A DNA stretch of 64,000 nt from Octopus vulgaris (Eukaryota): assembly GCA_951406725.2 (NCBI GenBank), contig OX597832.1, positions 67,890,001 to 67,954,000 of the forward strand. The letters are read 5' to 3'. The position numbers and the translations under genes were made by a program. Positions 1,140 through 57,574 of this stretch are shown piece after piece. Under the pieces are notes generated by a model. That model was not told the DNA's origin, ran no database searches, and saw nothing but the letters and a program-made list of their open reading frames with translations. Numbering within the stretch: the first letter of the stretch is position 1; the number at the start of each line of letters is the position of its first letter.

Positions 1140-1410
1140 TATTTGCTTTTTAAGCCTGGAACTCATACAGAGGCATAAACACACCAACACCGGTTGTCAA
1201 GTGATGGTGGTGGATAAAACAGACAAATACACACACACACACACACACACACACATACGACGGGGCCTATTTCAGTCTCCGTCTACGAAATCCATTCACA
1301 AGTCTTTGGTGTGCACGAGACTGCAGTAGAAGACACTTGTCCAATGTACCACGCAATGGGACTGAATCCAGCACCATCTCACTGGTAAGCAAATTTCTTG
1401 TCACAAATAC
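1140..1410 (-). mobile_element. tRNA-derived SINE, degenerate (same family as 24290-24683)
   Basis: Shares blocks with the 24.3-24.7 kb copy: ...accaacaccggttgtcaag..., tttcagt.tccgtctac.aaatcca.tcacaag, agaagacacttg.ccaa, gggactgaa.cc (reverse B box), and an internal (CA)n. Boundaries approximate. Confidence 0.7.
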
Positions 1411-2319
1411 TCGCCTAAATTTTGAAAATTTTGCTTGCGGTTCAATTTTAAGTTTTTTTCTTTCCCGTTGATGCATTTTCACTTTTATTCTTTCTTTCCA
1501 TAAATTAAATTTTAATTCTCTGAACATAATTAAAGTTACATCGCGTAAAATAGATGCTGTATCTTTGTCTGTCTTACAGTCTGTCTCTCACTCTCTCTCT
1601 ATCTTATATATATAATATATATATTTATATATATAAAACTGAGATTGTGTGTCTGTCTGTGTGTTTCCCTAAAACTTGAGAACTACACAACCAATTCCAT
1701 TCAAATTTTACACATGCCTTACTTACGGTCCATGTAGTTTCATGGGCAAAAAATGTTCAACTTCTTGCCTAGAGCGAGCCCATAGCAATATCATATCTTC
1801 TCCACTATTTCAGTATTACGTGTTAAAAGTGAAACAAAAACGTTTCTCTATTTTATGTCAGATACTTTCACTTTAACAATAAAAATAATAATAACAATTG
1901 AATTATATGTAGTAAGTAATAATTAAAATCAAACTAAAGTAACATAACAAAAGTAAAAATAGCAATTGGTATAACATTGCATCAATGATTTGAACTTGAA
2001 TAAGTAGTTTCACATGAATGGGAATAAATTAAAAATAAAATTAGCGTGCAGAAATGGAATAGTCCAGATGGATAATAAAAAATTAAATTAAAGAAAAGAC
2101 TATTGTCTATAAAGTATACAATGTAGAGAAAGGTCGCGTTTTTTCGGCTCCGTGTTTTTTTTTTTCTCGGCTCCTGAAAATTCGGTAAAAAGGAACAAGG
2201 GGCGTTGTTGTTGTTGTGGAAATTCTGAACGGCGTTGACGCGGTTTCGCGTTTCGCTCGTTCAGCGCGTTACACTTTTTCTGTTTTGGCGGCCGTTTTCG
2301 GTCTGTCAGACAGAAGGAA

Positions 2320-3680
2320 ATGGACAACCCCTACCTGATGGGAGATACGGCTGCAGTTTTTGAGTCTTTAACAGACTTGTCTACGTCTGAGGAGGAGCTA
2401 GAAATAGCAGTGAGGAAAATGGATCAGAAGCTGGGTTATACCTATGCCGGTGTAACCAAGAAGGCGGAAGAGAAAGGGGTCGACATGGCCAAGTTGCCAA
2501 GTTACCAGAAATACATGAAAAAGGAAAGCGGTGAGGTGGAACTATCACCGACACCCAGGAGAAAAGAATGGTATGATAAGAGGACCATTGTTTACAGGGT
2601 GTGCGCAAACGAAAGGAAGAAGGTAGAAGTTGTATCCATGGAATGGATAGAGGAAGCCCTGCGAAGAACTGAGGAGGAAATAAATTTTCTGACTCGAGGA
2701 TCCAAGTACGGGACCGTAGTTGTGCACTTTAAAAGTGAATCTGCAGCGAGGAAGATGGCAGCGAAGGCGGTGAAGTCGGAAAAGGTAACACTGTTACCTA
2801 CGTATTTAAACAGGAGGATTACACGAATAAGGGTGGAGGGAGTGCCACCAAACGTGGAGGCAGAATGGATTGTGGCGGCTGTGATCAGCGGCCACGAGGA
2901 CGAAGTGGATATTCTCCATGCCTCGGTTAAGTCCGAGGGCTGGAGAGGCGTAACAGTGGAGCTGAACGTACAGGCAGAGACCGAGGTACTGGTGGACCTG
3001 ACGGAAAGCATCAGACTGGGAGAAGTGATCATGAGAGTGTGGGTGGAGGGCAGGGCTCCACGTTGTTACAAGTGTGGCCTGAGGGGTCACATAAGAGCCT
3101 TCTGCCCTCCCCCAGGGAAAGAAATGGATCCCGAACCAGAGAGAGAGAAGCAGAAACCAGAGGAGAAGGAAACAGAGGAAGAGAATACACAGAAATGGAA
3201 GGAAGCTGGAAGTAAGAGGAAGAGAAGAATATGTGGAAAAAAAGAAAATAATATGGAACTCCAATCTACCCCAAAACCTCCCACACCCTCTGAGTCCCAC
3301 CCTATCCATGCAGACATTGAACCCACCCGCTCCCCCCCAACAAGAAAACAAAAGAAAAAAAGAATACACACACACAAGAGATTGAAATCGAACCCAGGCC
3401 GTACATTTGTACTATGACTGAACAGAAAGAAGTTAAAAGTCTAATGGAAGAGTATAAATGGTATGATGTTGGAGAGACTAGGTATGCTGTGATTGAAAAG
3501 AACATAGGTGAGTTTATGGGGAGGTGTGAAAGGGAGAATTGGGAGGTGAAAGATATAAGAATGAGCGATGAATTCGTGGAAAATATGGATGAGTATTTCG
3601 GAGTAAGAATGGATATGGAATTTATTCGTATTGACAAAGAACATTCAAGTGACTATGAAAAACAAAGGACAGGTAAGTGA
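2320..3680 (+). CDS. CCHC zinc-knuckle protein, LINE ORF1p/Gag-like, copy 1 (one -1 frameshift in the A-run near 3355-3361)
   Basis: ORFs 2320-3417 and 3414-3680. Motif CYKCGLRGHIRAFC (CX2CX4HX4C) follows RRM-like segments (TVVVHFKSESAARK; TRIRVEGVPPNVEAEWI). Adding one A joins the two ORFs. Confidence 0.75.
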
Positions 3681-3820
3681 TGCTGACGGACGGGGCCGTT
3701 GGTATCGCTTTCATTTTATCATTTTTTCGTTTAACAATTCATGTTCATAAAGTTTAATTATAATGTTCTATGTCCCCATGTTTTGTTATGTCCGCCATTC
3801 TTCGTAGCCCCTTAGTGGGT

Positions 3821-3826
3821 AATAAA
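3821..3826 (+). promoter_or_regulatory. Polyadenylation signal AATAAA of unit 1 (equivalents at 5574, 7308, 9057, 10731)
   Basis: Conserved AATAAA about 140 nt after each stop codon, including the diverged unit 5. Confidence 0.65.
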
Positions 3827-4015
3827 GAAATACGCGTTTTTTTCGGCTCCGTGTTTTTTTTTTCGGCTCCTGAAAATTCGGTAAAAAAGAACAAAAAGCG
3901 TTGTTGTTGTTGTGGAAATTCTGAACGGCGTTGACGCGGTTTCGCGTTTCGCTCGTTCGGCGCGTTACACTTTTTCTGTTTTGGCGGCCGTTTTCGGTCT
4001 GTCAGGCGGAGGGAG

Positions 4016-5433
4016 GTGGACTATGAGTCGCTGACAGACTTGTCCACGACGGATGAGGAACTGGAACAGGCAATTGCAGTGAAGCTGATGGAGGAAAAGG
4101 CTGGAGTTTTTGAGTCTTTATCAGACTTGCCTATGTCTGAGAAGGAGCTAGAAATGGCAGCAAGGAAATTGGAAGACAAGCTGAGTTATACCTATGCCGG
4201 TGTAACCAAGAAGGCGGAAGAGAAAGGGGTCGACATGGCCAAGTTGCCAAGTTACCAGAAATACATGAAAAGGAAAGCGGTGAGGTGGAACTATCACCGA
4301 CACCCAGGAGAAAAGAATGGTATGATAAGAGGACCATTGTTTACAGGGTGTGCGCAAACGAAAGGAAGAGGGTAGAAGTTGTATCCATGGAATGGATAGA
4401 GGAAGCCCTGCGAAGAACTGAGGAGGAAATAAATTTTCTGACTCGAGGATCCAAGTACGGGACCGTAGTTGTGCACTTTAAAAGTGAATCGGCAGCGAGG
4501 AAGATGGCAGCGAAGGCGGTGAAGTCGGAAAAGGTAACACTGTTACCTACGTATTTAAACAGGAGGATTACACGAATAAGGGTGGAGGGAGTGCCACCAA
4601 ACGTGGAGGCAGAATGGATTGTGGCGGCTGTGATCAGCGGCCACGAGGACGAAGTGGATATTCTCCATGCCTCGGTTAAGTCCGAGGGCTGGAGAGGCGT
4701 AACAGTGGAGCTGAACGTACAGGCAGAGACCGAGGTACTGGTGGACCTGACGGAAAGCATCAGACTGGGAGAAGTGATCATGAGAGTGTGGGTGGAGGGC
4801 AGGGCTCCACGTTGTTACAAGTGTGGCCTGAGGGGTCACATAAGAGCCTTCTGCCCTCCCCCAGGGAAAGAAATGGATCCCGAACCAGAGAGAGAGAAGC
4901 AGAAACCAGAGGAGAAGGAAACAGAGGAAGAGAATACACAGAAATGGAAGGAAGCTGGAAGTAAGAGGAAGAGAAGAATATGTGGAAAAAAAGAAAATAA
5001 TATGGAACTCCAATCTACCCCAAAACCTCCCACACCCTCTGAGTCCCACCCTATCCATGCAGACATTGAACCCACCCGCTCCCCCCCAACAAGAAAACAA
5101 AAGAAAAAAAAGAATACACACACACAAGAGATTGAAATCGAACCCAGGCCGTACATTTGTACTATGACTGAACAGAGGGAAGTTAAAAGTCTAATGGAAG
5201 AGTATAAACGGTATGATGTTGGAGAGACTAGGTATGCTGTGATTGAAAAAAAGAACATAGGTGAGTTTATGGGGAGGTGTGAAAGGGAGAATTGGGAGGT
5301 GAAAGATATAAGAATGAGCGATGAATTCGTGGAAAATATGAATGAGTATTTCGGAGTAAGAATGGATATGGAATTTATTCGTATTGGCAAAGAACATTCA
5401 AGTGACTATGAAAAACAAAGGACAGGTAAGTGA
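4016..5433 (+). CDS. CCHC zinc-knuckle ORF1p-like protein, copy 2 (GTG at the start position; -1 frameshift in the A-run near 4268-4271; C-terminal frame continuous)
   Basis: ORFs 4016-4375 and 4285-5433. The second reads through to ...KQRTGK* and so defines the full C-terminus. Confidence 0.75.
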
Positions 5434-5748
5434 TGCTGACGGACGGGGCCGTTGGTATCGCTTTCATTTTATCATTTTTTCGTTTAACACTTCATGTTCA
5501 TATAGTTTAATTATAATGTTCTATGTCCCCATGTTTTGTTATGTCCGCCATTCTTCGTAGCCCCTTAGTGGGTAATAAAGAAATACGTTTTTTTTTCGGC
5601 TCCTGAAAATTCGGTAAAAAAGAACAAAAAGCGTTGTTGTTGTTGTGGAAATTCTGAACGGCGTTGACGCGGTTTCGCGTTTCGCTCGTTCAGCGCGTTA
5701 CACTTTTTCTGTTTTGGCGGCCGTTTTCGGTCTGTCAGACAGAAGGAA

Positions 5749-7166
5749 ATGGACTATGAGTCTCTAACAGACTTGTCCACGACGGATGAGGAACTGGAAC
5801 AGGCAATTGCAGTGAAGCTGATGGAGGAAAAGGCTGGAGTTTTCGAGTCTTTATCAGACTTGCCTACGTCTGAGAAGGAGCTAGAAATGGCAGCAAGGAA
5901 ATTGGAAGACAAGCTGAGTTATACCTATGCCGGTGTAACCAAGAAGGCGGAAGAGAAAGGGGTCGACATGGCCAAGTTGCCAAGTTACCAGAAATACATG
6001 AAAAAGGAAAGCGGTGAGGTGGAACTATCACCGACACCCAGGAGAAAAGAATGGTATGATAAGAGGACCATTGTTTACAGGGTGTGCGCAAACGAAAGGA
6101 AGAGGGTAGAAGTTGTATCCATGGAATGGATAGAGGAAGCCCTGCGAAGAACTGAGGAGGAAATAAATTTTCTGACTCGAGGATCCAAGTACGGGACCGT
6201 AGTTGTGCACTTTAAAAGTGAATCTGCAGCGAGGAAGATGGCAGCGAAGGCGGTGAAGTCGGAAAAGGTAACACTGTTACCTACGTATTTAAACAGGAGG
6301 ATTACACGAATAAGGGTGGAGGGAGTGCCACCAAACGTGGAGGCAGAATGGATTGTGGCGGCTGTGATCAGCGGCCACGAGGACGAAGTGGATATTCTCC
6401 ATGCCTCGGTTAAGTCCGAGGGCTGGAGAGGCGTAACAGTGGAGCTGAACGTACAGGCAGAGACCGAGGTACTGGTGGACCTGACGGAAAGCATCAGACT
6501 GGGAGAAGTGATCATGAGAGTGTGGGTGGAGGGCAGGGCTCCACGTTGTTACAAGTGTGGCCTGAGGGGTCACATAAGAGCCTTCTGCCCTCCCCCAGGG
6601 AAAGAAATGGATCCCGAACCAGAGAGAGAGAAGCAGAAACCAGAGGAGAAGGAAACAGAGGAAGAGAATACACAGAAATGGAAGGAAGCTGGAAGTAAGA
6701 GGAAGAGAAGAATATGTGGAAAAAAAGAAAATAATATGGAACTCCAATCTACCCCAAAACCTCCCACACCCTCTGAGTCCCACCCTATCCATGCAGACAT
6801 TGAACCCACCCGCTCCCCCCAACAAGAAAACAAAAGAAAAAAAAGAATACACACACACAAGAGATTGAAATCGAACCCAGGCCGTACATTTGTACTATGA
6901 CTGAACAGAAAGAAGTTAAAAGTCTAATGGAAGAGTATAAATGGTATGATGTTGGAGAGACTAGGTATGCTGTGATTGAAAAGAAGAACATAGGTGAGTT
7001 TATGGGGAGGTGTGAAAGGGAGAATTGGGAGGTGAAAGATATAAGAATGAGCGATGAATTCGTGGAAAATATGGATGAGTATTTCGGAGTAAGAATGGAT
7101 ATGGAATTTATTCGTATTGACAAAGAACATTCAAGTGACTATGAAAAACAAAGGACAGGTAAGTGA
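5749..7166 (+). CDS. CCHC zinc-knuckle ORF1p-like protein, copy 3 (-1 frameshift in the C-run near 6815-6820)
   Basis: ORFs 5749-6900 and 6897-7166. C6 replaces the C7 run seen in copies 1 and 2. Confidence 0.75.
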
Positions 7167-7498
7167 TGCTGACGGACGGGGCCGTTGGTATCGCTTTCAT
7201 TTTATCATTTTTTTCGTTTAACAATTCATGTTCATAAAGTTTAATTATAATGTTCTATGTCCCCATGTTTTGTTATGTCCGCCATTCTTCGTAGCCCCTT
7301 AGTGGGTAATAAAGAAATACGTTTTTTTCGGCTCCGTGTTTTTTTTCGGCTCCTGAAAATTCGGTAAAAAAGAACAAAAAGCGTTGTTGTTGTTGTGGAA
7401 ATTCTGAACGGCGTTGACGCGGTTTCGCGTTTCGCTCGTTCAGCGCGTTACACTTTTTCTGTTTTGGCGGCCGTTTTCGGTCTGTCAGACAGAGGGAA

Positions 7499-8915
7499 AT
7501 GGATTATGAGTCTCTAACAGACTTGTCCACGACAGATGAGGAACTGGAACAGGCAATTGCAATGAAGCTGATGGAAGAAAAGGCTGGAGTTTTCGAGTCT
7601 TTATCAGACTTGCCTACGTCTGAGAAGGAGCTAGAAATGGCAGCAAGGGAATTGGAAGAGAAGCTGGGTTATACCTATGCCGGTGTAACCAAGAAGGCGG
7701 AAGAGAAAGGGGTCGACATGGCCAAGTTGCCAAGTTACCAGAAATACATGAAAAAGGAAAGCGGTGAGGTGGAACTATCACCGACACCCAGGAGAAAAGA
7801 ATGGTATGATAAGAGGACCATTGTTTACAGGGTGTTCGCAAACGAAAGGAAGAGGGTAGAAGTTGTAACCATGGAATGGATAGAGGAAGCCCTGCGAAGA
7901 ACTGAGGAGGAAATAAATTTTCTGACTCGAGGATCCAAGTACGGGACTGTAGTTGTGCACTTTAAAAGTGAATCTGCAGCGAGGAAGATGGCAGCGAAGG
8001 CGGTGAAGTCGGAAAAGGTAACACTGTTACCTACGTATTTAAACAGGAGGATTACACGAATAAGGGTGGAGGGAGTGCCACCAAACGTGGAGGCAGAATG
8101 GATTGTGGCGGCTGTGATCAGCGGCCACGAGGACGAAGTGGATATTCTCCATGCCTCGGTTAAGTCCGAGGGCTGGAGAGGCGTAACAGTGGAGCTGAAC
8201 GTACAGGCAGAGACCGAGGTTCTGGTGGACCTGACGGAAAGCATCAGACTGGGAGAAGTGATCATGAGAGTGTGGGTGGAGGGCAGGGCTCCACGTTGTT
8301 ACAAGTGTGGCCTGAGGGGTCACATAAGAGCCTTCTGCCCTCCCCCAGGGAAAGAAATGGATCCCGAACCAGAGAGAGAGAAGCAGAAACCAGAGGAGAA
8401 GGAAACAGAGGAAGAGAATACACAGAAATGGAAGGAAGCTGGAAGTAAGAGGAAGAGAAGAATATGTGGAAAAAAAGAAAATAATATGGAACTCCAATCT
8501 ACCCCAAAACCTCCCACACCCTCTGAGTCCCACCCTATCCATGCAGACATTGAACCCACCCGCTCCCCCCAACAAGAAAACAAAAGAAAAAAAGAATACA
8601 CACACACAAGAGATTGAAATCGAACCCAGGCCGTACATTTGTACTATGACTGAACAGAGGGAAGTTAAAAGTCTAATGGAAGAGTATAAACGGTATGATG
8701 TTGGAGAGACTAGGTATGCTGTGATTGAAAAAAAGAACATAGGTGAGTTTATGGGGAGGTGTGAAAGGGAGAATTGGGAGGTGAAAGATATAAGAATGAG
8801 CGATGAATTCGTGGAAAATATGAATGAGTATTTCGGAGTAAGAATGGATATGGAATTTATTCGTATTGGCAAAGAACATTCAAGTGACTATGAAAAACAA
8901 AGGACAGGTAAGTGA
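7499..8915 (+). CDS. CCHC zinc-knuckle ORF1p-like protein, copy 4 (two single-base homopolymer deletions near 8565-8593)
   Basis: ORF 7499-8617 plus the 3' part of 8466-8915. C6 and A7 runs versus C7 and A8 in copy 2. Confidence 0.75.
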
Positions 8916-9232
8916 TGCTGACGGACGGGGCCGTTGGTATCGCTTTCATTTTATCATTTTTTTCGTTTAACACTTCATGTTCATATAGTTTAATTATAAT
9001 GTTCTATGTCCCCATGTTTTGTTATGTCCGCCATTCTTCGTAGCCCCTTAGTGGGTAATAAAGAAATAAGCGTTTTTTTGCGCTCTGTAAAATTCGGTTA
9101 AAAAAGAAAAAACAACAAAAAGTGAATTGTGGTTGCGGAATTGGAACGTCGGTTGGTGCGGTTTCGCGTCGCACTGGTTCTGTGCGTCGCACGTTTTCTG
9201 TTCGGGAGGCCGTTTTTCGGTCTGAGGCGACT

Positions 9233-10595
9233 ATGAGCCGCCTCTACCAAACGGATGAGATGGAAGGGAGAAATTTCTCTGAAAATTCGTCGACATCTGA
9301 GGAGGAGTTGGCGGTGAAAAAAATGGAAAGCACCTATGCAGGTATAACGAAGAAGTCAACAGAAAAGAGATAGACCTGGCTAAGTTGACGGACTTCCAGG
9401 AGTTCATGAAGGAGGAGGAGAACGGAGAGGTTGAGCTGTTGCCTCTAGCAGGGCGCGGAGACTGGTTCCATCGTAGAACCATTAAATATAAAGTATTTAT
9501 GAATGGAGGTAGAAAAATGGAAGTGATTAACATGGAAGCAATTGAAGAGGCTTTCAAACGGACAGGAGAAGAAATTGTGTACATGACAAAAGGATTAGAA
9601 TATGGAACCATAACGGTACAATTTAAAAGTGAGAAAGCAGCCAGGAATATAGCAGCCAAGGTGGTGAGTACAGAAAAGTTTTACTTGTTCCCCTCGTATT
9701 TGAATAGAAGGACCACCAGAATTAGGGTGGAAGGAATACCTCCACACCTAGAGGGCGAATTAATAACGGCTGCGGTTATCAAAGGAAATGAAGATAAAGT
9801 GGACATCCTCCACGCCATTATGAAATATGAAGGCGTTAGAGGTGCCACACTAGTAATGAACATACAGACGGAGGCGGAAGTTATAGAAAAGCTTACGGAC
9901 AGTATAAAAACTGGAAATATTATTATGAGAGTGTAGGTGGAGGGTAGGGCGCCCAGGTGCTACAAGTGTGGCATGAGGGGTCACATAAGAGCCTACTGCC
10001 CTCCACCACTAAAGGAAAAAGAAAAGGAAATCGTCGCGGAAGCCCCAAAAGAGGAAGAAACCAAAGAGAACCAAAGGGAAAAAGAAACGACAGAAGAAGA
10101 GGAGATGCAACAAGAGTGGGAAGAAGGAAGAAAAAGAGAAAAAGAAAGAAAAAGAAAAACTGTGCGAAGCCCCAACCCACCCCAACACCACCCGCACCCT
10201 CTGAATCCCACCCTTCCCCTGCAGACAGTGAACCCACCCGCTCCCCTCCAACAAGAAAACAAAAGAAAAATAACAATACAGACAGACAAGAGTTTGAAAA
10301 CGAACCCAGGCCGAACATTTATATTGTGACTGAACAGAAAGAGGTTGAAAGGGTAATGGAGGAGTATGAATGGTATGAAATGGATGGGACCAGATATGCA
10401 GTGCTGGAAAAGAAGAATATAGATGAGTTTGTGTTGAGGTGTGAAAGGGAGAATTGGGAGGTGAAAGATACAAGAATGAGCGATGAATTCGTGGAATATA
10501 TGGAGGACAGTTTCGGAGTAAGAATGGATATGGATGGTCTTCGTATTGGGAATGAACATTCAGGTGACAGTGAAAACAAAAGGACAGGTAAGTGA
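9233..10595 (+). pseudogene. Diverged paralogue of the zinc-knuckle ORF1p-like gene, copy 5
   Basis: CYKCGMRGHIRAYC is retained. In-frame TAG at 9934-9936 replaces Trp of RVWVEG. Frameshifts near 9370 and near 10160. Same 3' UTR and AATAAA (10731-10736). Confidence 0.85.
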
Positions 10596-10744
10596 TGCTG
10601 GCGGAGGGGGCCGTTAGCATCGCTTTCATATTATCATTTTTTCATTTTCATTTGCTCATAAATTTAATCATATTGTTCTATGTCCCCCATGTTTTGTTAT
10701 GTCCGCCATTCTTCGTAGCCCCTGGTGGGTAATAAAGAAATAAC

Positions 10745-11040
10745 ATGGAGGCAAGCACCTTCGAAAAGTGTCTTGGTGCGACTATGAAAGGTATCTAATC
10801 AGAGGCGGTCAATTCGCCACAATAGAAGCAAGGTTCGAGTCAACGGAGCGTGCAAGGGAGTACTCGACTCGAACTTGCAAAATGGAGATATTTTATTTTC
10901 CCCTTTATATCTGGGACGTAGGATGTCCCGGAAAAGAAATTTTAAATGCCCCCAGAAGTAGCGGTAGGCTGGATTGTAGCCACACTTCTATACAAGAGGG
11001 AGGATAAGATACAATTGATCGAAATTACAAGAGACGGGCT
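10745..11040 (+). pseudogene. Sixth, highly diverged fragment of the same ORF1p-like family
   Basis: Across frames it reads YLIRGGQFATIEARFESTERAREY / ILFSPLYLGRRMSR / MPPEVAVGWIVATLLYKREDKIQLI, matching FLTRGSKYGTVVVHFKSESAARKM / TLLPTYLNRRITR / VPPNVEAEWIVAAVISGHEDEVDIL. Confidence 0.75.
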
Positions 11041-12049
11041 AACAATTCCAGTCTGTTATATATTTTGAGTATTGTTATCACTAGCGATATCAAGATATAA
11101 CTTTGTATTTTGTATTTTATGTGTAGATGTATATATATAGATGTACATGTAATATGTACACATATATATTTACACACATATACATGCACTAGCACTATGA
11201 CCCGGCAACGACGGGTCTTTAATGCTAGTATATATATTAATATAAATAAATATATATATATATATATATATATCTTTTAATTACGTGCATTTACCGGAAA
11301 TGACTTGATAATAAGTCACTAACCTATGAAATTAGTACGAAATTCTTTAGTTGCGGAAGCTGGAGATGAGAATTTAAATTCTGATGAAAACGTAGATTAA
11401 ATAGATGCAGACGTGATTATAGCTAGACTATGCTTTTGATATGCATGTATGTATGTGTGTATGTACGTATGTATGTATGTATGCATATCATTCTGCTTTT
11501 ATTTTTAAAATTCTTCACTTACAATGATCCAATCTCTATTCCAGGACATTGCCCTGTCATTGGAATTTAGACAAAAGTTTCTTGTAACCATGTATCCATA
11601 TGAGTGTGTATATGATGTATTTATGTGCGTGCCTCTATGCATATTTGTACTTCACCATATCCTTTCTGGTAAAGTGAAGTCCAAATTCATAAATTTGGTG
11701 ACATATCCAAGTGCCGCAGTAATTGCTGGTATGAATATGATGCTACAGCTCACATAAATCAAATTCGGATTTCACATTACTTCAGTTATACGTATTTCTC
11801 ACTTGTAACCTTTGGCTTGCGCACCTGTCCGGCAACTGACATCCATTCTCAGCTCGCTATCATTGTACCTCGTCTTTGTTATTTTTGCCTTTCAACTGAG
11901 AAATGATGACACCTTACATTCTTATTCTTCATACTACAGAAAATATCGTCACCCGCAAACACACACAAACACACACATAGCAATATTAAATCTCTGAGCG
12001 AAAAGTAAACAGTACCAGTAAATCGTGAAGTATATTTGCCACCTAAATG

Positions 12050-12380: not shown

Positions 12381-12935
12381 TACCCTTTTGAATCCTCTTC
12401 CAGATTTTGTGCGATTAGATGAATAAATAGGTATGTCGCTTATGACATTTTTAAAACAATGGATGTAACTTTAGATTTCAGGGGTTTTTTTTCTTTCTTA
12501 CGTATATTTTATAATAATAAATGGTGGTTAATACTTCACTAACTAATCTTTCTACTTATATTGAACGAAGGGGTTTTGTTTGCTTCTCTTTTATAAAGCA
12601 AGTTTAAAAGTAATATCTGAAATGACGTTAAATCATAAATTTCTCGATTTTATTTTAAAAGTTTCATTATACACACATATACACACACTCCGTATACACA
12701 GAGAAGGCACTGACTAGGTTGTTACACTCACGATACAGCGATCGTGAGTTCAATTTCTAGACAGTGGTTCGTTGTGTTTTTGAGCAAAACACTTCATCTC
12801 GCGTTGCTCCGCGATCACTTTGACACCTGATATGTGGTACACTGTGCACATGTTCAGACAACGTCGATTTGATGTGAGCTAATGTACAGCACGATAGATA
12901 GATAGATAGATATAGATAGATAGACGGGCAGATAG

Positions 12936-13497
12936 ATATCCTCCTCCAGTTGTATTTTCTCGCTACATTCGTATCCAGAGAGCTTCTGATTTCCACAGTA
13001 GAACATATCTCTTCTTTGTGGTTCCACACGATAACATCTGGCTGGTTGGGTTTTAGCTCCGTAGGTGTTTCAATTTTTTTAAAGTTCCACCATAAATTTT
13101 TTTACCCATCTTTCTCACTCTGTCATATATATAGATATATGATTGACTCTCCCGTCGAAGACGACGTGTGCAGGTTCAACTTTTGCCGAACGACCTGCAT
13201 AAATTATTTATTTCACTATAAATAAATAATTTATGCAGGTCGTTCGGCAAAAGTTGAACCAGCACACGTCGTCTTCGACGGGAGAGTCAATCATATATCT
13301 ATATATATGACAGAGTGAGAAAGATGGGTAAAAAAATTTATGGTGGAACTTTAAAAAAATTGAAACACCTACGGAGCTAAAACCCAACCAGCCAGATGTT
13401 ATCGTGTGGAACCACAAAGAAGAGATATGTTCTACTGTGGAAATCAGAAGCTCTCTGGATACGAATGTAGCGAGAAAATACAACTGGAGGAGGATAT
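12936..13497. repeat. Near-perfect palindrome with 278-bp arms and a 6-nt loop (13214-13219)
   Basis: Mirror ORFs 12950-13225(+) and 13208-13483(-) differ internally by one residue (R/W). One arm mismatch seen. Confidence 0.97.
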
Positions 13498-13560
13498 GTA
13501 CATTATTCCTACAAACTTATCCGGAGCAAAGTAAGACTGAACTGATTCTTCAACAGACAA
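13320..13560 (+). mobile_element. RLE-type (R4/Dong-like) non-LTR retrotransposon endonuclease fragment forming the outer part of the palindrome arm
   Basis: Reads LWWN...ETPTELKPNQPDVIVWNHKEEICSTVEIRSSLDTNVARK, resembling the PD..(D/E) restriction-like endonuclease motif. Confidence 0.6.
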
Positions 13561-23300: not shown

Positions 23301-24289
23301 TAATGTGGTTCAGGTTTCATCCTTATTAACATTCTGCAATGTTCAAAACATGGAAATCTATGCATGAACACTAACTTCAATAGAGAACAAAATAGAAAAT
23401 TGAATCCATTCGTTTTACCATATATGTGAAAACCCCTACATACACACACGCACACATGATGGAGTATTCATTCTCACACTGAACGAAATGATAGTGTGAT
23501 ATAAGGAAAGAGATACATTTAAAATGTCACCTGAGGAAGAGAATTTTCACATTTCATGGATGATAGAGATTACGTAGTATGTTAATTATATTATCTCACA
23601 AATGCTCTGCGAGTGTAAAACCGAGTCGCAACAATATATGTGAAAAAATGTTAAGATAGAAAATGCTAAAATAATTTTATAAAAACATTTCAGTACCGGT
23701 TTCAGTCGTTGAGACATTTTCAACTGTAACAATTAATAAAATTTAGAAAAATTTATATATATATTGATAAAAACGGTAAGATAACAAAAGAAAGAGACCT
23801 CAATATTATGTAAATAGAGGAAATTTATCTGTAAATTAATATGTGTCAATTATACAATAACCAAGATAAAACTCTGAGTTTCGGATGCCGAAGTGGAAAT
23901 CCACAACACCATCTCGACGAAAAAATACGTGGGCCTTACAGAGGGTAATTTCAAGGCCAGTTTCAATAACCACACCTTGAGTTTTAGGCACCGGAACAAA
24001 AGAAAAGCGACAAAATTATCCAATCGTATTTGGTCAATAAAAGATAAAGGAGTCAGTTACAACATCCATTGGAAGATTTTGGCCAAATGTAAGTCCTACA
24101 CCAACGGCAACGGAAAGTGCGGTCTATGCGACATGGAGAGATGGCTTATCTGGAAAAGCAGCTTAGACCCTACTACATGTCTAAATTCAAGGACAGAACT
24201 TTTCGGATCATGCCCAGATGTGACAAAATTTTTGTTACCTTTTTGGTCCCCCCCCAAAAAAAAAATACAGATAGAGCTTGCTTTCTATA

Positions 24290-25467: not shown

Positions 25468-25528
25468 GATAACCGAAGAGATAGTGTTGTGGATTTCCAC
25501 TTCGGCATCCGAAACTCAGAGTTTTATC
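25468..25528 (+). ncRNA. Hammerhead-like motif with variant core (CCGAAGA...GAAA)
   Basis: gataa CCGAAGA gat-agtg..cact..atc-c GAAA ctc-a-gag TT ttatc. Stem I gataa/ttatc and a minimal stem III ctc/gag. Confidence 0.55.
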
Positions 25529-25565
25529 TTGACTATTGTATAATTGTAACATATTAATTTACAGA

Positions 25566-25633
<68 letters not shown>

Positions 25634-27404: not shown

Positions 27405-27482
27405 ATATATATATTGGTAAAACGGTAAGATAATAAAAGAAAGAAAGATACCTCAATATTATGTAAATAGAGGAAATTTATC

Positions 27483-27642
27483 TATACAATAATATGTTAC
27501 ATTACTCGATAGTCAAGATAAAACTCTGAGTTTCAGATGCCGAAGTGGAAATCCACAACACCATATCTTCGGTGTTGTGGATTTCCACTTCGGCATCTGA
27601 AACTCAGAGTTTTATCTTGACTATCGAGTAATGTAACATATT

Positions 27643-27650
<8 letters not shown>
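27483..27650. repeat. Perfect palindrome (80-bp arms, 8-nt loop) made of the same PLE terminal repeat as 23826/25566
   Basis: 27483-27562 is the reverse complement of 27571-27650, with loop atatcttc. It is followed by (TA)n. Confidence 0.95.
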
Positions 27651-27699
<49 letters not shown>

Positions 27700-30974: not shown

Positions 30975-32095
30975 CGTAATCTTGGATTATTTACATTATT
31001 TACTTTTGACGGATATTTGTCCTCATCGTGATATACCCTCCAGCCTTCATCGGGTATCTTGGGGATATTTCGAACCTGAGTTCTTAATCCTAAGTTATTT
31101 TTCGATGTTATTATTATTATTATTATTGTGAGCTCGAATCCCGGACCGGGCTGCGTGTTGTGTTCTTGAGCAAGGCACTTTATTTCACGTTGCTCCAGTT
31201 CACTCAGCTGTAGAAATGAGTTGCGACGTCACTAGTACCAAGCTGTATCGACCTTTGTCTTTCCCTTGGATAACACTGGTGGCGTGGAGAGGGGAGGCTG
31301 GTATGCATGGGCGACTGCTGGTCTTCCATAAAAACAACCTTGCCCGGACTTGTGTCTAGGAGGGTAACTTTCTAGGTGCAATCCCATGGTCATTCATGAC
31401 CGAAGGGGGTCTTTACCCTTTTTTACTATTATTATTCAGATCACTGCTTGGAATCGAACTCAGAATCTTGATGTTAGTAGACCGTGCTCTTAACCACTAT
31501 GCCATTATGTAAATAATGTACATAATTACTCATCTCTTAAATATACAACTGTATAATCTTCGATGTTTAAAATATCTAATGTTCTCAAAGTACAATTAAA
31601 ACGCAGGTTCAAACAAGGAATTAACATCCAACGTAATGAAAATATATAACTATAGTTACTGTAATATAAAGTTGAAGTTAAACACATTGGCCCAAATCAA
31701 ATGCTGACAAATAACCCAGACCATTGAGCCAGTCCTAAGCCCAACCCTTATATCCAAAACGTGAGCCGCCACGTTATTGCAAAATTTGACACGAAACCAT
31801 AAACCGAACAAAAAATATCTCAGCCTAAACACTAGCTCAAACACCATAACACTAACCTTTATACTATAACTATGTATAAAACAAAAACTCTGACCTGGAT
31901 TACTAACAGCAACACTAATTGTAAATCGTGACTACAGGGAAACGTTTTCAAAGAAATATATTCTTGCAATGAAAAAGACATATTATTTTGCGTTTTGAGA
32001 ATTTTCTGTTTCGGCGCTTCATGCTCACGAAATCCAATACATACATCTATGCATATGTTAGATACACTCATTCATACAAACTCACACATACAACC

Positions 32096-32135
<40 letters not shown>

Positions 32136-33533
32136 CTACTCTTTGGGCTTAACATTCTGCACCTCTCCTGCTTTAATTTCCTACTCTTTGGACTTACATA
32201 GCCTTTTCTTCTCTAGGCATAACGGCCCGAAAATTCTGGGGAGGGGGCCAGTCGATTAGATGCACCGCAGTACGTAACTGGTACTTAATTTATCGACTCT
32301 GAAAGGATGAAAGGCAAAATGGATCTCGGCGAAATGTGAACTCAGAACGTAAGGACATATGAAATACCTATTTCTTTACTATCCACAAGGAGCTAAACAC
32401 AAAGAGGACAAACAAGGAACAGTAATCTTAAGTCGATTATTTACAGTGCGTAACTTTACCTAATTTATGACGGAATTTGTCCTCATGTGATATACCCTCC
32501 ACTTCTCGGTATCTTGGGGATATTTCGAACCTGACTAAGTTATTTTTCATGTTATTATTATTATTATTATTGTGAGCTCGAATCCCGGACGCGTGTTGTG
32601 TTCTTGAGCAAGGCACTTTATTTCACGTTGCTCCAGTTCACTCAGCTGTAGAAATGAGTTGCGACGTCACTAGTACCAAGCTGTATCGACCTTTGTCTTT
32701 GCCTTGGATAACACTGGTGGCGTGGAGAGGGGAGGCTGGTATGCATGGGCGACTGCTGGTCTTCCATAAAAACAACCTTGCCCGGACTTGTGTCTAGGAG
32801 GGTAACTTTCTAGGTGCAATCCCATGGTCATTCATGACCGAAGGGGGTCTTTACCCTTTTTTACTATTATTATTCAGATCACTGCTTGGAATCGAACTCA
32901 GAATCTTGATGTTAGTAGACCGTGCTCTTAACCACTATGCCATTATGTAAATAATGTACATAATTACTCATCTCTTAAATATACAACTGTATAATCTTCG
33001 ATGTTTAAAATATCTAATGTTCTCAAAGTACAATTAAAACGCAGGTTCAAACAAGGAATTAACATCCAACGTAATGAAAATATATAACTATAGTTACTGT
33101 AATATAAAGTTGAAGTTAAACACATTGGCCCAAATCAAATGCTGACAAATAACCCAGACCATTGAGCCAGTCCTAAGCCCAACCCTTATATCCAAAACGT
33201 GAGCCGCCACGTTATTGCAAAATTTGACACGAAACCATAAACCGAACAAAAAATATCTCAGCCTAAACACTAGCTCAAACACCATAACACTAACCTTTAT
33301 ACTATAACTATGTATAAAACAAAAACTCTGACCTGGATTACTAACAGCAACACTAATTGTAAATCGTGACTACAGGGAAACGTTTTCAAAGAAATATATT
33401 CTTGCAATGAAAAAGACATATTATTTTGCGTTTTGAGAATTTTCTGTTTCGGCGCTTCATGCTCACGAAATCCAATACATACATCTATGCATATGTTAGA
33501 TACACTCATTCATACAAACTCACACATACAACC

Positions 33534-33573
<40 letters not shown>

Positions 33574-33860
33574 CTACTCTTTGGGCTTAACATTCTGCAC
33601 CTCTCCTGCTTTAATTTCCTACTCTTTGGACTTACATAGCCTTTTCTTCTCTAGGCATAACGGCCCGAAAATTCTGGGGAGGGGGCCAGTCGATTAGATG
33701 CACCGCAGTACGTAACTGGTACTTAATTTATCGACTCTGAAAGGATGAAAGGCAAAATGGATCTCGGCGAAATGTGAACTCAGAACGTAAGGACATATGA
33801 AATACCTATTTCTTTACTATCCACAAGGAGCTAAACACAAAGAGGACAAACAAGGACAGA
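30975..33860 (+). repeat. Direct tandem duplication, period 1438 bp, built from SINE pieces and a low-complexity (aaaccc/taac-rich) tract
   Basis: Identical ORFs at 31656/33094, 31859/33297 and 31995/33433. The junction 32415-32600 is corrupted. Confidence 0.95.
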
Positions 33861-34040
33861 CAAACGGATTAAGTCGATTATATCGACCCGAGTGCGTAAC
33901 TGGTACCTAATTTATCGACCCAGAAAGGATGAAAGGCAAAGTCCACCTCGGCGGAATTTGAACTCAGAACGTGACGCCAGACGAAATAGGGCTATGCATT
34001 TCGCCTGGCGTGTTACCGTTTCTGCCAACTCACCGCCGTA
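33650..34040 (-). mobile_element. Second tRNA-derived SINE family (other copies near 32210-32460, 45050-45265, 51800-51950, 61890-62105)
   Basis: Shared core gtcgatta.atcgaccc.agtgcgtaactggtact.aatttatcgacc.cgaaaggatgaaaggcaaagtc.acctcggcggaatttgaactcaga, with the reverse complement of a B-box-like GTTCAAATTCC. Confidence 0.75.
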
Positions 34041-42859: not shown

Positions 42860-44610
42860 ATTTAGTTAGTTAGTTAGTTAATTTTTTGGCTCAAAAAGCA
42901 AAAAGCAAGGCCATGTAGGGGGACATGGAGTTATGTACAGGGTGGTGTTCATGTAAAGAGTACAGGCCACTTGAAGTCAAGGGAGACTTTGAACCGAGCG
43001 GTCGTCGGCATCTTCACCATCTCGTCTGGCAGCTTATTCCACGGATCCGCAACCCGGGGGGGAGAAAGCCCCTCTCCTTCGATTGAGATGAAATCGTCGC
43101 AGATAGATCTTTTCGGAATGACCCCGCGGCCGATGCTCTGGAGCAGGAGGGAAGAACAGCTCTTTCGAGAGGTTACACTTTCCACTTATGATGTTGTGAG
43201 CAAGAATGAGATCTCCACGGCGTCGTCGTTTTTCTAGAGAATAAAAGTCGAGCGTCTTCAGTCTTTCTTCGTAAGACAAATTCTAGAGACCAAGAATCAT
43301 GCGGGTAGCCAGCTTCTGGACTCTTTCGAGATGATGTATGTCTTTGAGGAGATAAGGAGAAGAGGCTTGAATCCCGTACTCCAATATGTGTCTCACCAGC
43401 GTGACATAGAGCGGTAGGAATATGGCTGCTGTGAGCATTCCGAATGACTTGTTGGCAGCATGGACGCGTGCTTTGTTGGCAGCATGGACGCACTGGGCCG
43501 AAGGCGAAAAGGAGGAATCCACCAAGATACCCAGATCCTTTACCTGATCGGTCCTCTCCAGCAGCAGACGACCCGGCTCGAAATCAAGTTGAGTTGCAGG
43601 AGGAGAGCCAACAGGCAGATGACAGCACTTTGACACGTTCAGACACAGGTCCCATTCGTTAGACCATCTCCAAATTTGGTGGAGGCATCGACGAAGATCC
43701 TCTATATCACCGCGAGGAGTGACCAGTTTGACATCGTCGACAAATAGAAGGGTGTGTTGCGTGAGGTCGTCGGGCAAGTCATTTATGAAGACTAAGAACA
43801 ATAAGGGCCCAAGCACTGAACTTTGAGGCACGCCACTGCTCGCACTGGAGACGTTGGACCGCGAACCATTAACTTGGACTTGGAAGGAGCGATCTGAGAG
43901 GAAGGCACCAACCCATCGTACAATATCCGGATGGAAACTATATGCTTGAAGCTTGACAAGTAATAGGCGGTGGTTTACCGTGTCAAAAGCTTTGGCAAAG
44001 TCCAATAAAACGATGTCAACAGCATCACTATCATCGAGGATGCGCGTCACCAATTCTTCCATTACCAGTAAGTTGGCCAAGCATGATCTCTTCGGCACGA
44101 AGCCGTGTTGGGAATCAGAGATAGAGGCTGTGTTTTGGAGGTGGCGCATCATACTTTTCTTAAGGATGGTTTCGAACATCTTGCTGATTATTGATGTAAG
44201 GGAAACCGGTCGGTAGTTAAGCGGGTCTTCGCGGCTCCCTTTCTTGAAAATTGGGCGGATTATCGCTGTTCTCCAGTCCGCAAGTATAACACCCGTCGCC
44301 AATGACATATTGAATAGACATGTTAAGGGCTCGCAGATGACCGGAGCCAACGCTTTGATAACCCGTGGATGTATGCCGTCAGGGCCGTAACCCTTGTTGA
44401 CATCGAGGCCTTGAATAACGCGTTCGACTTCGTCCCGCGTGATGACCAATCAAAACATTGGAGGTACCGATCTATCAAATGGAGGGGGTTCACGACCATC
44501 ATCTTGTTTGAAAATAGTTGAAAAAGCCTCGGCAAATAATTGACTCTGTTGATAAGGGTCCTCAATCGATACGCCTGTTGAGTCTACCAACGTTGCAATT
44601 TCATTTAAAT
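42860..44610 (-). mobile_element. 5'-truncated CR1-clade LINE (RT domain to 3' end)
   Basis: ORF 43283-44449 has GPDGIHP, NYRPVSLTS, QHGF, LDFAKAFDTV, GVPQSSVLGPLLF and FVDD (catalytic motif altered). It continues after a frameshift as SYEERLKTLDFYSLEKRRRRGDLI. 3' (TAAC)n tail at 42862-42880. Confidence 0.93.
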
Positions 44611-45292
44611 GAAACCATTCTAATTAAAGACCGAGATGTAACCTCCTAACTTCATTGGATCTTACCAGCTGTCACGTGAACGCTGACGTCATGACGCACA
44701 GCACACATTAGTCCAGGCATGGTGAGATTTGTTTCTTCGAAAGAGATTGGAGGGAACAAAGTTTGTTAAAAATGAAAACTGGCTCCCACACGATTGGTTC
44801 TTTATTCATTGACCTTCAAATAATGAAATACAAACTTGACTTTAGTGGTATTTGAAATCTGATTGTAAAAACGAATGCTATAGGGTGGTGCACTTATGCT
44901 CGCTATATCATAGTTTCAATTCACAGACCAGGTGATGCGTTGTGTTTTTAAGCAAAACACTTCATCTCATATTGCTCTGCGATCACTTCCACATTTGACC
45001 TCTGGTATACTGTGCACCTGTCCAGGTAATGTCAATTTATATATATATATTTCTTTATTGCCCACAAGGGGCTAAACACAGAGGGGATAAACAAGGACAG
45101 ACAAACGGATTAAGTCGATTACATCGACCCCAGTGCGAAAGTGGTACTTTATTCATCGACCCCGAAAGGATGAAACGCAAAGTCGACCTCGGCGGAATTC
45201 AAACTCAGAACGTAACGGCTACGCATTTCGCCCGGTGTGCTAACGATTCTGCCAGCTCGCCGCTGAAAAAAGACGTGTCCCAGGTGAGGACA

Positions 45293-47720: not shown

Positions 47721-50599
47721 AAAGTTCTCCTCTAATTCAAATTACAGAGGGACATTTTGTGTTCATGAAATTTGTAACGAGTAATATTTTGTTCTTTGTT
47801 ATTGGCGCAGACAGCCCATGTGTTTAGAAATCTGAATTACATCGTTTCAGGTTCAGGCCCAGTGCGCTGCACCTTGGGTAGGTGTCTTCTGCTCAAGTCT
47901 CAGACCGACCGATGGATTGTTAATGAATTTCTAGGACGAAAATTCTGTGGAAAACCACCGTTTGTGTTTGTGAGTCTCTGTGTGTGTCATACCCTACACT
48001 GATTAGTAGTATGCGTTTTTTTTACATCTCTTTTATCAAGCAGTTTGGCAAAAGATCCCGATTTAATAAGTATGAGACTTTAAAAAACATCAATATTGAT
48101 TGGGATCGATTTGTTAGAGCAAAACCCTCAACGGTGATGCCCCAACAAGGGCGCAAATTAGCAAGGGAAACAAATAAAAGCTATCCATGCAGTCGTGTTC
48201 ACTGCATCACCTTTCATTTACAATTCAAACTTAGAAATATACAAGAAAACTTTTTTCTTTCTTATCCTTACGTCATTTCAAATTTTAATTAATTTAAAAA
48301 AAACAAAAAACATATTTGTTATTGTAGTCTTCCTTTCCCTCACCGATGTCTGTTTCTAAAAACGAATTAGATTTATCCATTTAATTTTAGGACATCAAGT
48401 CCAAAAACTGAAAAAAACACATCAATTTTTTTTTTTAAATACAAGTTTTCTAGGAAATTCTCATTCATTATTTTAAAAGCTTTTATCTCACAAAGAAAGT
48501 TGTAATATAGAGACTGCCTTGCTGCACAGCAAGAATATGAAGAATTTCTCTTGAGTAGAATTATTCTTAATATTTATTAGAAAATGTTTATAACATATGT
48601 TTGCAACATAATGCTTGTAACATATGCTTGAAACATATTTAGCCCTCCGGCAAAACGATAATGTTTTAGGCTATACATAGAAATCATTTTGACAAGCCAT
48701 AGACGCGGCCTCCATTATACAGATTTTAAGATATTAAATATGATTTTACATGCAGAGATATTCCATAATCCTTCTGTATGGCATTCCGAAAACTTTTGTT
48801 TATTCAAAATTTGCTACATCTGTCAGGAAAGTTTTTGTTTGAAGCCATAAACTTATAAATGACAAGTTTGTGCGAGGAATTCCTTTCCACATGAATAGAG
48901 GGTAATTTATCTTCTATACTCTATAAAGGAATTGTAGTCTTTTTACTTCCCATGTGACAGTTGTGGTGCAACCTTATCTAACCTTATATCACTACAAAAT
49001 TCAGTTTAAATATATTTGAACCAGCCACGTTTATAAACATTACGTATAATTTCATGCATCAGAATTTCATAACTGTGGTTGTTGATTAATTGAAGGTTGA
49101 TTGATTAATTGAAATTATTCCTTCCGTGATCACCCTGTATAGTAAGAGGTATTTCTAGTACAACGTTATTCTACATCATTGTTTTTATATATATATATAT
49201 ATATATATAAACCAATGAAAGTTTTGCTTTAGCTACAATTATAAAACAATGAAAGTTTGGCTATAGCTGCAATTTCTAGCAGATTAGACGACCATCTATA
49301 GCTGGCATTGATGGCGATATGTAATACGGAAACCTCAACTAAATTAACTAAACTAGCAACTTTGATATTGCGCCGAAAACAGATTTATCTTTCAACAGAT
49401 TAATGAAAGAAAAAAATTGTTCAAAAGATAAAATTTATCATTTGAGTTTTCTTCAAAAGAAAATTAATTTTAATCAAAACCGTTTATTGTTTGTCCCACC
49501 GTTCAATAACTGCAATACAAGAAAATAGATTAACATGTTCCGAGTTGTTTGTGGTGATGGTGATTGGTAATATCAGGAGAGAGCGAATCAGAAACAAGAA
49601 GAAATAAAAAGAGACGATAGATCTGATCAGAACAAAACAAAACCAGGGCTATTTTGATGTACTCTACTCAATGAATGGCGTCCATCAAAATAAACACTAT
49701 GTCGTTGAATAGTGGAGGTTTTTTCTTGTTGTATTTTTGCTTTTTTTTTTACTTTAGTTCGAGACTTTTTCATTTCGCCATTTTTCTTTATTGGCAGGAA
49801 GTTGTATACTAAACAGCAGACAGCTCGTTTGGCTCACTGCCAATAAAAACATAGGAAAATCTCGGAAAATTATTCTGAAAGAATTTTTTCTATCGAATTA
49901 ATGAATATTTGGGTTTTATCTGCAGGAATATGTCTTACTTACAATAATATATCTTTCCTATAAATATCTCTGAAGGAACACGAAACTAAGTAAATATTAT
50001 TGTTATTATTTTAAGTTTGGAAAATAAAAAATAACAGAGCCAGTAATGCATTGAATTGATTTTTGATTGATAGACGCATGCAGTATAATTCAGAAGTTTT
50101 CTTTTCAAGAGAGGAATTGGAAAGAAACAAAAACACAAATATGGAAACAAGCGAAAATCGGAGAGTGGCCGGTCATTGGAAATTACGGATTGTTTTATGC
50201 AGAATATTCATCTGGTGTGGTTATGAATATGTCCAGGTAGACAATGACTTCTATAGGAAATTTTCAGCCCTTTCTGAAAATCACCAACAACAGCATCATT
50301 ATCATTGTCGTCATAGTGTTGTTTGAAAAACAATGTGTAAAGCCCCATCCAAACAAAAAATACTGTTTCAATTTTGCTTACCACTTGTTTACTCGGCATT
50401 AGGGAAGAGTGAAAAACTTTCCAACGCAATGATGATGATGCTGATAATTTATTTCTTTATTGCCCACAGGGGTCTAAACAGAGAGGAAACAAACAGGGAC
50501 AGACAAAAGGTTTAAAACTGATACAAATAGTCACAAAATACAAAACAAAAAACTGTTTTCTCCTTTAAGGAAACTGACAAACACTAAAAAATAGGTCAA

Positions 50600-56230: not shown

Positions 56231-56308
<78 letters not shown>

Positions 56309-56529
56309 ATCAATATAGGGTGGCAAAAAAATGTTGTAGAATTCTTTTGCCACCAGCGGCCTAGTAGGAAAAAATTAAATAGTCATAAACCATTTTTACG
56401 TTCAACATCACAATCAAGGAACGGCCATAATAGGCCATTCACCCACTAGAAATAACAGCCAAAAGCTTTAACCGCAAAATAACATTAATACCGTAAACCA
56501 GGAGAAAATTGAAAAACTTTTACCCTGTA

Positions 56530-56636
56530 ATTTCTTAGACGATGCACCGTTTCATCTACCGTTTAATGGTAAACTAACCTGATTAAATTAAATCAAGCCA
56601 ATCCACCATAGGCCCTTAGACTCATCAGTAAGAAAT
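56530..56636 (-). ncRNA. Type I hammerhead ribozyme, intact core
   Basis: Reverse complement: atttctta CTGATGA gtcta...tagat GAAA cggtgcatcg TC taagaaat. Confidence 0.9.
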
Positions 56637-57467
56637 AGCCAAATCGGGACAGATATTTTTCACGAGGCATTCCTCTTGCTACCTCGGCAATATCTGACCT
56701 AAAATTTTCAAATCGTCGCACTCGCGCCAAATTTATCGGCAGCAAATAAACCACCGATTCCGTTACGGAACTAACCAGAAAATTCATAATTAATCAATAT
56801 AGGGTGGCAAAAAAATTTTGTAGAATTCTTTTGCCACCAGCGGCCTAGTAGGAAAAAATTAAATAGTCATAAACCATTTTTACGTTCAACATCACAATCA
56901 AGGAACGGCCATAATAGGCCATTCACCCACTAGAAATAACAGCCAAAAGCTTTAACCGCAAAATAACATTAATACCGTAAACCAGGAGAAAATTGAAAAA
57001 CTTTTACCCTGTAATTTCTTAGACGATGCACCGTTTCATCTACCGTTTAATGGTAAACTAACCTGATTAAATTAAATCAAGCCAATCCACCATAGGGTAA
57101 AAGTTTTTCAATTTTCTCCTGGTTTACGGTATTAATGTTATTTTGCGGTTAAAGCTTTTGGCTGTTATTTCTAGTGGGTGAATGGCCTATTATGGCCGTT
57201 CCTTGATTGTGATGTTGAACGTAAAAATGGTTTATGACTATTTAATTTTTTCCTACTAGGCCGCTGGTGGCAAAAGAATTCTACAAATTTTTTTTGCCAC
57301 CCTATATTGATTAATTATGAATTTTCTGGTTAGTTCCGTAACGGAATCGGTGGTTTATTTGCTGCCGATAAATTTGGCGCGAGTGCGACGATTTGAAAAT
57401 TTTAGGTCAGATATTGCCGAGGTAGCAAGAGGAATGCCTCGTGAAAAATATCTGTCCCGATTTGGCT

Positions 57468-57574
57468 ATTTCTTACTGATGAGTCTAAGGGCCTATGGTG
57501 GATTGGCTTGATTTAATTTAATCAGGTTAGTTTACCATTAAACGGTAGATTAAACGGTGCATCGTCTAAGAAAT
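57468..57574 (+). ncRNA. Type I hammerhead ribozyme with core mutation (GAAA to TAAA at 57551)
   Basis: Same motif as the other units but reading tagatTAAAcggtgc. Confidence 0.85.

Follow-up and report, generated by a model that had tools for sequence, protein, structure and literature searches.

How did a tandem array of zinc-knuckle genes come to lie between the two ends of a Helitron in the genome of Octopus vulgaris? The locus is a composite of 9.6 kb (1602-11228) within 64,000 nucleotides (nt) of contig OX597832.1 (assembly GCA_951406725.2, positions 67,890,001 to 67,954,000 of the forward strand); this whole stretch is called the window, and all coordinates refer to it. An earlier note, made from the sequence alone, had offered two options, namely a Helitron that mobilises a captured gene array, or a short Helitron in which an array has landed. 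Here we found three layers. The array consists of five units that carry only the first open reading frame (ORF1) of a retroelement, it is nested in an older scrap of ORF1, and this scrap is nested in an element with Helitron-type ends (Table 1).

The termini of the composite

Canonical Helitrons are described as starting with TC, ending with CTRR behind a palindrome of 16-20 nt located ~11 bp from the end, and inserting between A and T (PMC4067079). At the left of the composite, an A at 1601 is followed by TC at 1602-1603 and a TA-rich run to ~1640, 530 nt upstream of the array. At the right, a 19-nt stem-loop (11199-11217) stops 11 nt before the final base of CTAG (11225-11228), which is followed by T, and the last gene fragment stops near 11035-11037, ~190 nt short of this end. 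Both termini had been pointed out in the earlier note and are real. The A and T that would mark an A/T insertion are present (A1601 and T11229), but both lie inside microsatellites.

The 3' terminus was examined further. The fold of a 56-nt stretch around the stem-loop has a z of -4.7, which was equalled in 0 of 200 shuffles. A scan of both strands for a GC stem followed by CTRR-T found this single place in the window, among 383 CTRRT sites, while 30 block shuffles gave two matches in total (0.07 per shuffle). The end lies in a palindrome of ~42 nt (11188-11229) with CTAGT at either side and is a valid 3' end on both strands, so that the element is oriented by its connection with the TC terminus. 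A Helentron or HINE was rejected, as the ends are A^TC and CTAG^T and not the TT insertion with T-string ends that is given for this group (PMC4067079). Further copies of either arm were not found in the 64-kb window, and Rfam gave no match at 1500-4100.

As outside evidence, contigs of four public runs (X1, X2, X3 and X12) were compared with positions 1380-3820, where the summed contig depth was taken as a sign of abundance and not as a copy number. In the three DNA-type runs the depth is 25-92 in the flank (1462-1543) and 6e5-1.4e6 at 1708-1789. This step of four orders of magnitude marks the left arm as a very abundant repeat. Positions 1575-1670 were skipped in the depth data, and the reads locate the 5' boundary only inside this interval.

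The form without the array

One X2 contig exits the window sequence at 2131, continues with eight other letters and is then identical to 11038-11059 in 22 of 22 positions. It gives an array-less form of ~0.73 kb and shows that both parts, left and right, come from a single element and are joined when the array is missing, as the earlier note had considered. Contigs exit behind 2131 in all four runs (30 in X1, 10 in X3, 14 in X12 and one in X2), and they share the same first eight letters, which are not the start of the array.

An ORF1 scrap split by the array

The earlier note had treated 1602-2134 as the left end of the Helitron. This holds for 1602-2073, whereas 2074-2131 appears to be derived from ORF1 already. 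We used an ORF1 profile that was built without window sequence from 146 library proteins out of 150, after removal of four that were long or consisted of the knuckle only. In the right half, it gave 30.3, 30.2 and 26.3 bits at profile positions 111-193 (10789-11035). With the array and the right half set aside, the left remnant (2078-2140) scored best of the 4,266 six-frame peptides, with 8.7 bits at profile positions 71-91; the runner-up had 4.4. The remnant adjoins the array and is collinear with the right half. By homology, 2074-2131 and 10743-11037 are the collinear halves of one old ORF1 fragment of ~0.37 kb. When one frame of the right half was used as a protein query, no candidate was returned.

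Contigs that enter at 2074 (13 in X12 and two in X2) bring in-frame ORF1-like letters, GESRITPPN or SESRITPPN as read by eye, and one X2 contig exits at 2072 into other sequence. Position 2074 therefore looks like the capture boundary of the scrap, and the ORF1 family that donated it appears to be present outside the Helitron as well. Two motifs stand 19 residues apart in seven of the nine scorable library proteins (nine of 150 fit the pattern) as well as in U1 and U5, the first and last units of the array. Applied to the split scrap, this spacing suggests that 12-13 nt were lost at insertion. No target duplication was found at the array junctions; the longest word common to the left and right sides has 6 nt and lies away from the junction.

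Five units that carry ORF1 only

The order is Helitron, ORF1 scrap and five head-to-tail units (U1 to U5). Each 1.7-kb unit is filled by one reading frame, and the second open reading frame (ORF2) is absent and has no room. The single tandem zinc-knuckle array of the earlier note is present, but it is made of five units of two families, next to the older split fragment, and is not one repeat. U1 to U4 differ from each other by 1.2-2.5% substitutions, and U5 is 28% away. The note had also stated that the repeated units exclude the Helitron ends and that the tandem is not accounted for by simple rolling-circle concatemers. We agree on both: 2135-10742 contains neither terminus, and a rolling-circle concatemer was rejected for units that lack the termini.

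Every unit has AATAAAGAAATA at its end and no A run, and the next unit starts 0-3 nt further on (U3 lacks ~20 nt). The tail motif of the array occurs in four copies resembling short interspersed nuclear elements (SINEs) in the window and in none of the shuffles. These SINE-like copies are at 45045-45277, 50447-50540, 32366-32460 and 33804-33900, all on the minus strand, and the first is embedded in (TA)n.

U2 is the sole unit in frame from the knuckle to the C-terminus. The frameshifts within U1 to U4 fall on homopolymers and could reflect errors of the assembly; about one third of the depth in X1, X3 and X12 carries one more A behind 3354. Only U5 has an in-frame stop. An age polarity among U1 to U4 was considered and rejected, as their haplotypes alternate and the in-frame stop is confined to U5. 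The identity between U3 and U5 is 61-69% in the core with the predicted RNA recognition motifs (RRMs) and 96% over the last 78 aligned nt. By windows, it is 53-69% in most of the 5' and core part and 79-87% in the 3' third before the final 78 nt. This gradient could possibly reflect a mosaic, or selection on the end that is read by a partner enzyme.

Table 1. Features of the composite and the basis of their assignment
Feature	Coordinates	Strand	Basis
Host A and Helitron 5' terminus (A^TC), in a (CT)n/(TA)n microsatellite	1601..1603	+	Sequence; depth step within 1575-1670
Left arm; Helitron-type element, non-autonomous and very high-copy	1602..2073	+	Depth; one X2 contig exits at 2072
Old ORF1 scrap, left half; IKN*IKEKTIVYKVYNVEK in the frame from 2075	2074..2131	+	Profile match; X12/X2 loose ends
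5' junction with GGT; scrap probably short of 12-13 nt; no target duplication	2132..2134	+	Motif spacing; shared-word check
U1, ORF1-only; N-terminus is a variant; A-to-G at 2192 and 2199-2201 private to this unit	2135..3832	+	Alignment; X1 depth at 2199
U2, ORF1-only; private A-to-G at 3959, 4006, 4008, 4015 and 4016 (start ATG now GTG)	3833..5585	+	Alignment
U3, ORF1-only; ~20 nt short at the 5' end; 3' haplotype in common with U1	5586..7319	+	Alignment
U4, ORF1-only; 3' haplotype in common with U2	7320..9068	+	Alignment
U5, ORF1-only, of the second family (28% divergence); stop at 9934-9936; 96% identity to U3 over the last 78 aligned nt	9069..10742	+	
Old ORF1 scrap, right half, with frameshift; right edge uncertain, maybe ~11060	10743..11037	+	Profile; tblastn
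Right arm of the Helitron-type element	11038..11228	+	11038-11059 follows 2131 and eight other letters in an X2 contig
3' stem-loop (11199-11217), CTAG (11225-11228) and host T (11229), in a ~42-nt palindrome	11199..11229	+	Sequence, fold, scan

The encoded protein

The units are predicted to encode an RNA-binding protein. The model of the unit core contains two RRM-like domains and the knuckle, with a predicted local distance difference test score of 94. Among the structure matches, tandem-RRM proteins are best (E 2e-5), and the La RRM (Z 8.4, root-mean-square deviation 2.6, 76 aligned) is tied with other RRMs. The knuckle motif CX2CX4HX4C is present in the unit sequence, and of the 72 members of the alignment, 16 have zf-CCHC at E <= 0.05. 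RRM followed by CCHC is the architecture of type I ORF1 proteins (PMC5203782) of long interspersed nuclear elements (LINEs); the units have this order, with the RRMs being predicted. Pfam matches to DUF4833 were below the cut-off and were disregarded. Between U1 and U5, nonsynonymous divergence (dN) is 0.27, and the synonymous sites are saturated (181 codons).

A word-indexed search with the unit protein gave a single match, a gene model from Octopus sinensis with 50% identity, and seven of the ten further relatives that were looked up carry Octopus or Argonauta names. No match was obtained in the Joint Genome Institute (JGI) metagenomes with an exact 31-letter pattern and a single-protein search, a scan that left viral contigs outside. 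No longer relatives fused to ORF2 were found among 7,985 candidates of 1,092-3,115 residues, which is weak evidence. No RNA data set was listed as containing the sequence. Many octopus gene models of this family that are annotated as uncharacterised or as CCHC-domain proteins are probably mobile elements.

Signs of an RNA stage

The private changes in the leaders are four A-to-G in U1 and five in U2, against one T-to-C (p ~4e-4 after base composition, post hoc). Position 2199 reads A in 51,253 of 51,794 of the X1 depth (99%), so that the G of U1 is nearly private. At the informative sites among U1 to U4, U1 goes with U3 and U2 with U4 eight times, U1 with U4 and U2 with U3 three times, and U1 with U2 and U3 with U4 once. 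Thus the stack draws on two unit haplotypes. The U2/U4 allele at 3459 makes up 483,038 of 548,862 depth in X1 and is absent (0) in X3, X12 and X2. As the Helitron is present in all four runs, the stack is younger than the Helitron family. Taken together, the private A-to-G clusters, the alternating 3' haplotypes, the two families and the tail shared with SINEs make the units look individually RNA-derived.

Relative to the Helitron arm, the units (2446-3757) have a depth of ~0.3 (X1), 0.02 (X3) and 0.06 (X12), and one of the 3' haplotypes occurs only in X1. The excess in X1 possibly reflects a recent lineage-specific burst, or library bias.

How the stack was formed

We consider it probable that a Helitron captured and spread the ORF1 scrap, that ORF1-only units were then inserted into it by target priming with an enzyme borrowed from a LINE, and that the stack grew at its 5' side or by template jumping. 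The Helitron would have taken up the scrap from a family that still lives apart from it. The units would have been copied in trans by a LINE that recognises the shared 3' tail, and the target-primed insertion would have cut the scrap with a loss of 12-13 nt and left no duplication. Later units may have been added 5' of the resident unit, or joined when the enzyme jumped between RNAs; the window fits both. U1 and U2 may have undergone adenosine-to-inosine editing at the RNA stage, presumably by ADAR, before they were copied. A transposition of the loaded element as a whole is not assumed. Of the options in the earlier note, the landing of the array in a short Helitron is thus favoured, by the split collinear scrap and by the contigs behind 2131 that skip the array start. 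Gene capture by the Helitron fits the scrap of ~0.37 kb rather than the array; the idea was right for a smaller object, and a 9.6-kb Helitron that mobilises the array found no support here.

Several observations weigh against this reconstruction. The link without the array is one contig that stops short of the CTAG terminus and lacks most of the scrap, and an intact empty site was not seen. Behind the eight shared letters, the consensuses of X1, X3 and X12 are mixed, with an agreement of only 0.59. The table of loose ends holds exiting contigs only and is silent on contigs that continue into the array, and 892 further loose ends are unlisted. The left remnant by itself is below significance window-wide (E 0.19 over 4,266 peptides), and zf-CCHC in U1 is under the Pfam cut-off (E 0.05). 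The predicted stems show no excess of the changed adenosines (mean pairing of 0.53, versus 0.67 for the others). Unlike R1 tandems, the units have neither a poly(A) tail nor target DNA between them. An ORF2 partner for the units was not found, and the evidence comes from a single locus.

As in the first option of the earlier note, the stack might have been built by retrotransposition at another locus, within a copy of the Helitron, and the Helitron transposase would then have brought the 9.6-kb element with its load to the present site. Both termini look intact, recently active Helitrons are listed for O. vulgaris with 178 insertions and 766 kb (PMC13282606, Table 1), non-autonomous Helentrons of oyster bear tandem repeats (PMC7492417), and the 5' variant of the U1 type is multi-copy, with a depth at 2326 of 4,520 in X1 and 1,371 in X3. 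However, the left arm is unlike nearly all copies at 1726, 1842, 1975 and 2006, which gives no hint of a freshly cloned common copy. Moreover, the absence of the U2/U4 haplotype from three of the four runs means that the exact composite is not common to those runs, and the leader edit of U1 at 2199 is nearly private. We regard such a move as unlikely. We are equally doubtful about a shuttle, in which a Helitron spreads the LINE ORF1 piece as a landing pad, ORF1-only units, some of them edited by ADAR, stack on it, and the Helitron ends then move the loaded stacks. If true, a DNA transposon would both supply targets for retroelements and disperse them.

Alternatively, one or two units could have been retrotransposed, and the rest could have arisen at the DNA level by unequal crossing-over or gene conversion, in the way that satellites grow, or been copied from a large tandem array elsewhere. 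The low divergence among U1 to U4 would agree with this, as would the 3' halves, which alternate as in a duplicated dimer, and a head-to-tail joint in X12 that leads from 3820 to 2139 (depth 656). It has also been described that dimers of transposable elements can grow (PMC5932611). Yet all four unit-to-unit junctions are different, and the A-to-G clusters are strand-biased and private to single units. The supposed dimer partners differ at 31 sites (U1/U3) and 22 sites (U2/U4), equal to the non-partner pairs, and a simple recent dimer duplication was rejected on these counts. Expansion at the DNA level seems improbable to us. That a tandem cluster of an octopod host gene family (ZCCHC3-like, RNA-binding) was captured whole by a Helitron is very hard to believe: relatives in Octopus and Argonauta are annotated as uncharacterised or CCHC-domain genes, look-alikes in the Atlas include ZCCHC3-type clusters at 0.90 and there is purifying selection, but the 1.7-kb units have no introns or spacers, share their 3' tail with SINEs, are inserted into a related reading frame, reach a very high summed depth and have the RRM and CCHC architecture of type I ORF1 proteins (PMC5203782).

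Insertion of trans-mobilised ORF1-only units into a captured scrap is the explanation that we prefer. Spacerless stacks make the choice between one-at-a-time 5' addition and RNA template jumping testable in a genome. If the A-to-G clusters stem from ADAR, edits made in RNA would have passed into heritable DNA, and this in the animal group that edits most.

Other features of the window

Further repeats lie outside the composite. A near-perfect palindrome of 568 bp is found at 12933-13500 (arms of 281 nt, 99%, loop of 6 nt). It overlaps a frame without a Pfam match, which we take by eye to resemble a LINE restriction-like endonuclease. At 56302-58665, a 484-bp unit forms a fold-back tandem, in which ~3.2 forward copies (57094-58665) face ~1.6 inverted ones (56302-57096) with 99% identity. 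A direct duplication of ~1.47 kb (30990-33915, 97% identity) contains part of a SINE-like copy in each half. On the minus strand, 43283-44449 holds a frame of 388 amino acids, by eye a LINE reverse transcriptase, in a 5'-truncated element of ~1.7 kb whose 3' end does not have the tail of the array. A palindrome of 182 bp (27476-27657, 94%) belongs to a repeat that also occurs at 23754-23915 and 25484-25616. No tRNA gene was found in the window.

Comparison with known systems

HeT-A forms head-to-tail arrays, and HAL1, which is derived from L1, has a poly(A) tail and a target duplication. HAL1 proper was rejected for our units, which end without an A run and show no duplication. In the broader sense of a non-autonomous LINE with ORF1 present and ORF2 absent, they are HAL1-like. 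HAL1, HeT-A and Ag-Sponge have been described as precedents of this kind, with one ORF1 protein and no reverse transcriptase (PMC5786205). Unlike these, the octopus units are interstitial, lie in a Helitron, lack poly(A) and combine two families 28% apart in one stack.

In the R1 tandems of Drosophila, new copies join the 5' end of the resident, and target bases are lost at the 5' junction in part of the lineages (PMC2718515). The growth at the 5' end in our proposal and the target deletion at the 5' junction are alike. In contrast, R1 tandems are spaced by a 14-bp target duplicate, and few or none are of the deleting type (PMC2718515), whereas a deletion and a spacerless stack are combined here. 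Double insertion has been reported as another source of tandems (PMC5932611).

The ends, the palindrome and the presumably captured fragment resemble canonical non-autonomous Helitrons (PMC4067079), and the flanking A and T would mark an A^T site. Cg_HINE elements of oyster are non-autonomous Helentrons with short central tandem repeats (PMC7492417), and tandem repeats between the ends are common to both (PMC7492417). The octopus units differ in being whole coding retroelements of 1.7 kb with marks of an RNA stage and not satellite monomers, and the ends are of the Helitron type. The 2026 repeat annotation of O. vulgaris reports active L1-Tx1 and Helitron families, and its main text contains neither 'ORF1' nor 'nested' (PMC13282606). 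We found no description of the arrangement for octopus among the papers that literature searches listed; the families may already be contained in the repeat library of that annotation (PMC13282606) or in Repbase.

The closest cases come from the Tx1 clade, where retroelements home into DNA transposons, namely Tx1 into Tx1D in Xenopus and Tx1-Mar together with SINEU into Mariner-N4_AMi in crocodilians (PMC4494074). Similar to our locus, non-LTR elements and their partners insert in a non-autonomous DNA transposon, the insertions can be in tandem, and truncation of the target is one outcome (PMC4494074). The recurrent use of a single target is a trait of this clade; in our case, five units lie at one site of one locus. 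Unlike in the Tx1-clade cases, however, the transposon has Helitron ends, the site lies in the captured ORF1 scrap, the passengers are coding ORF1-only units, and no target duplicate spaces them. A Helitron with a retroelement scrap appears to offer insertion sites to the relatives of the scrap, a three-layer dependence that goes beyond the closest published cases.

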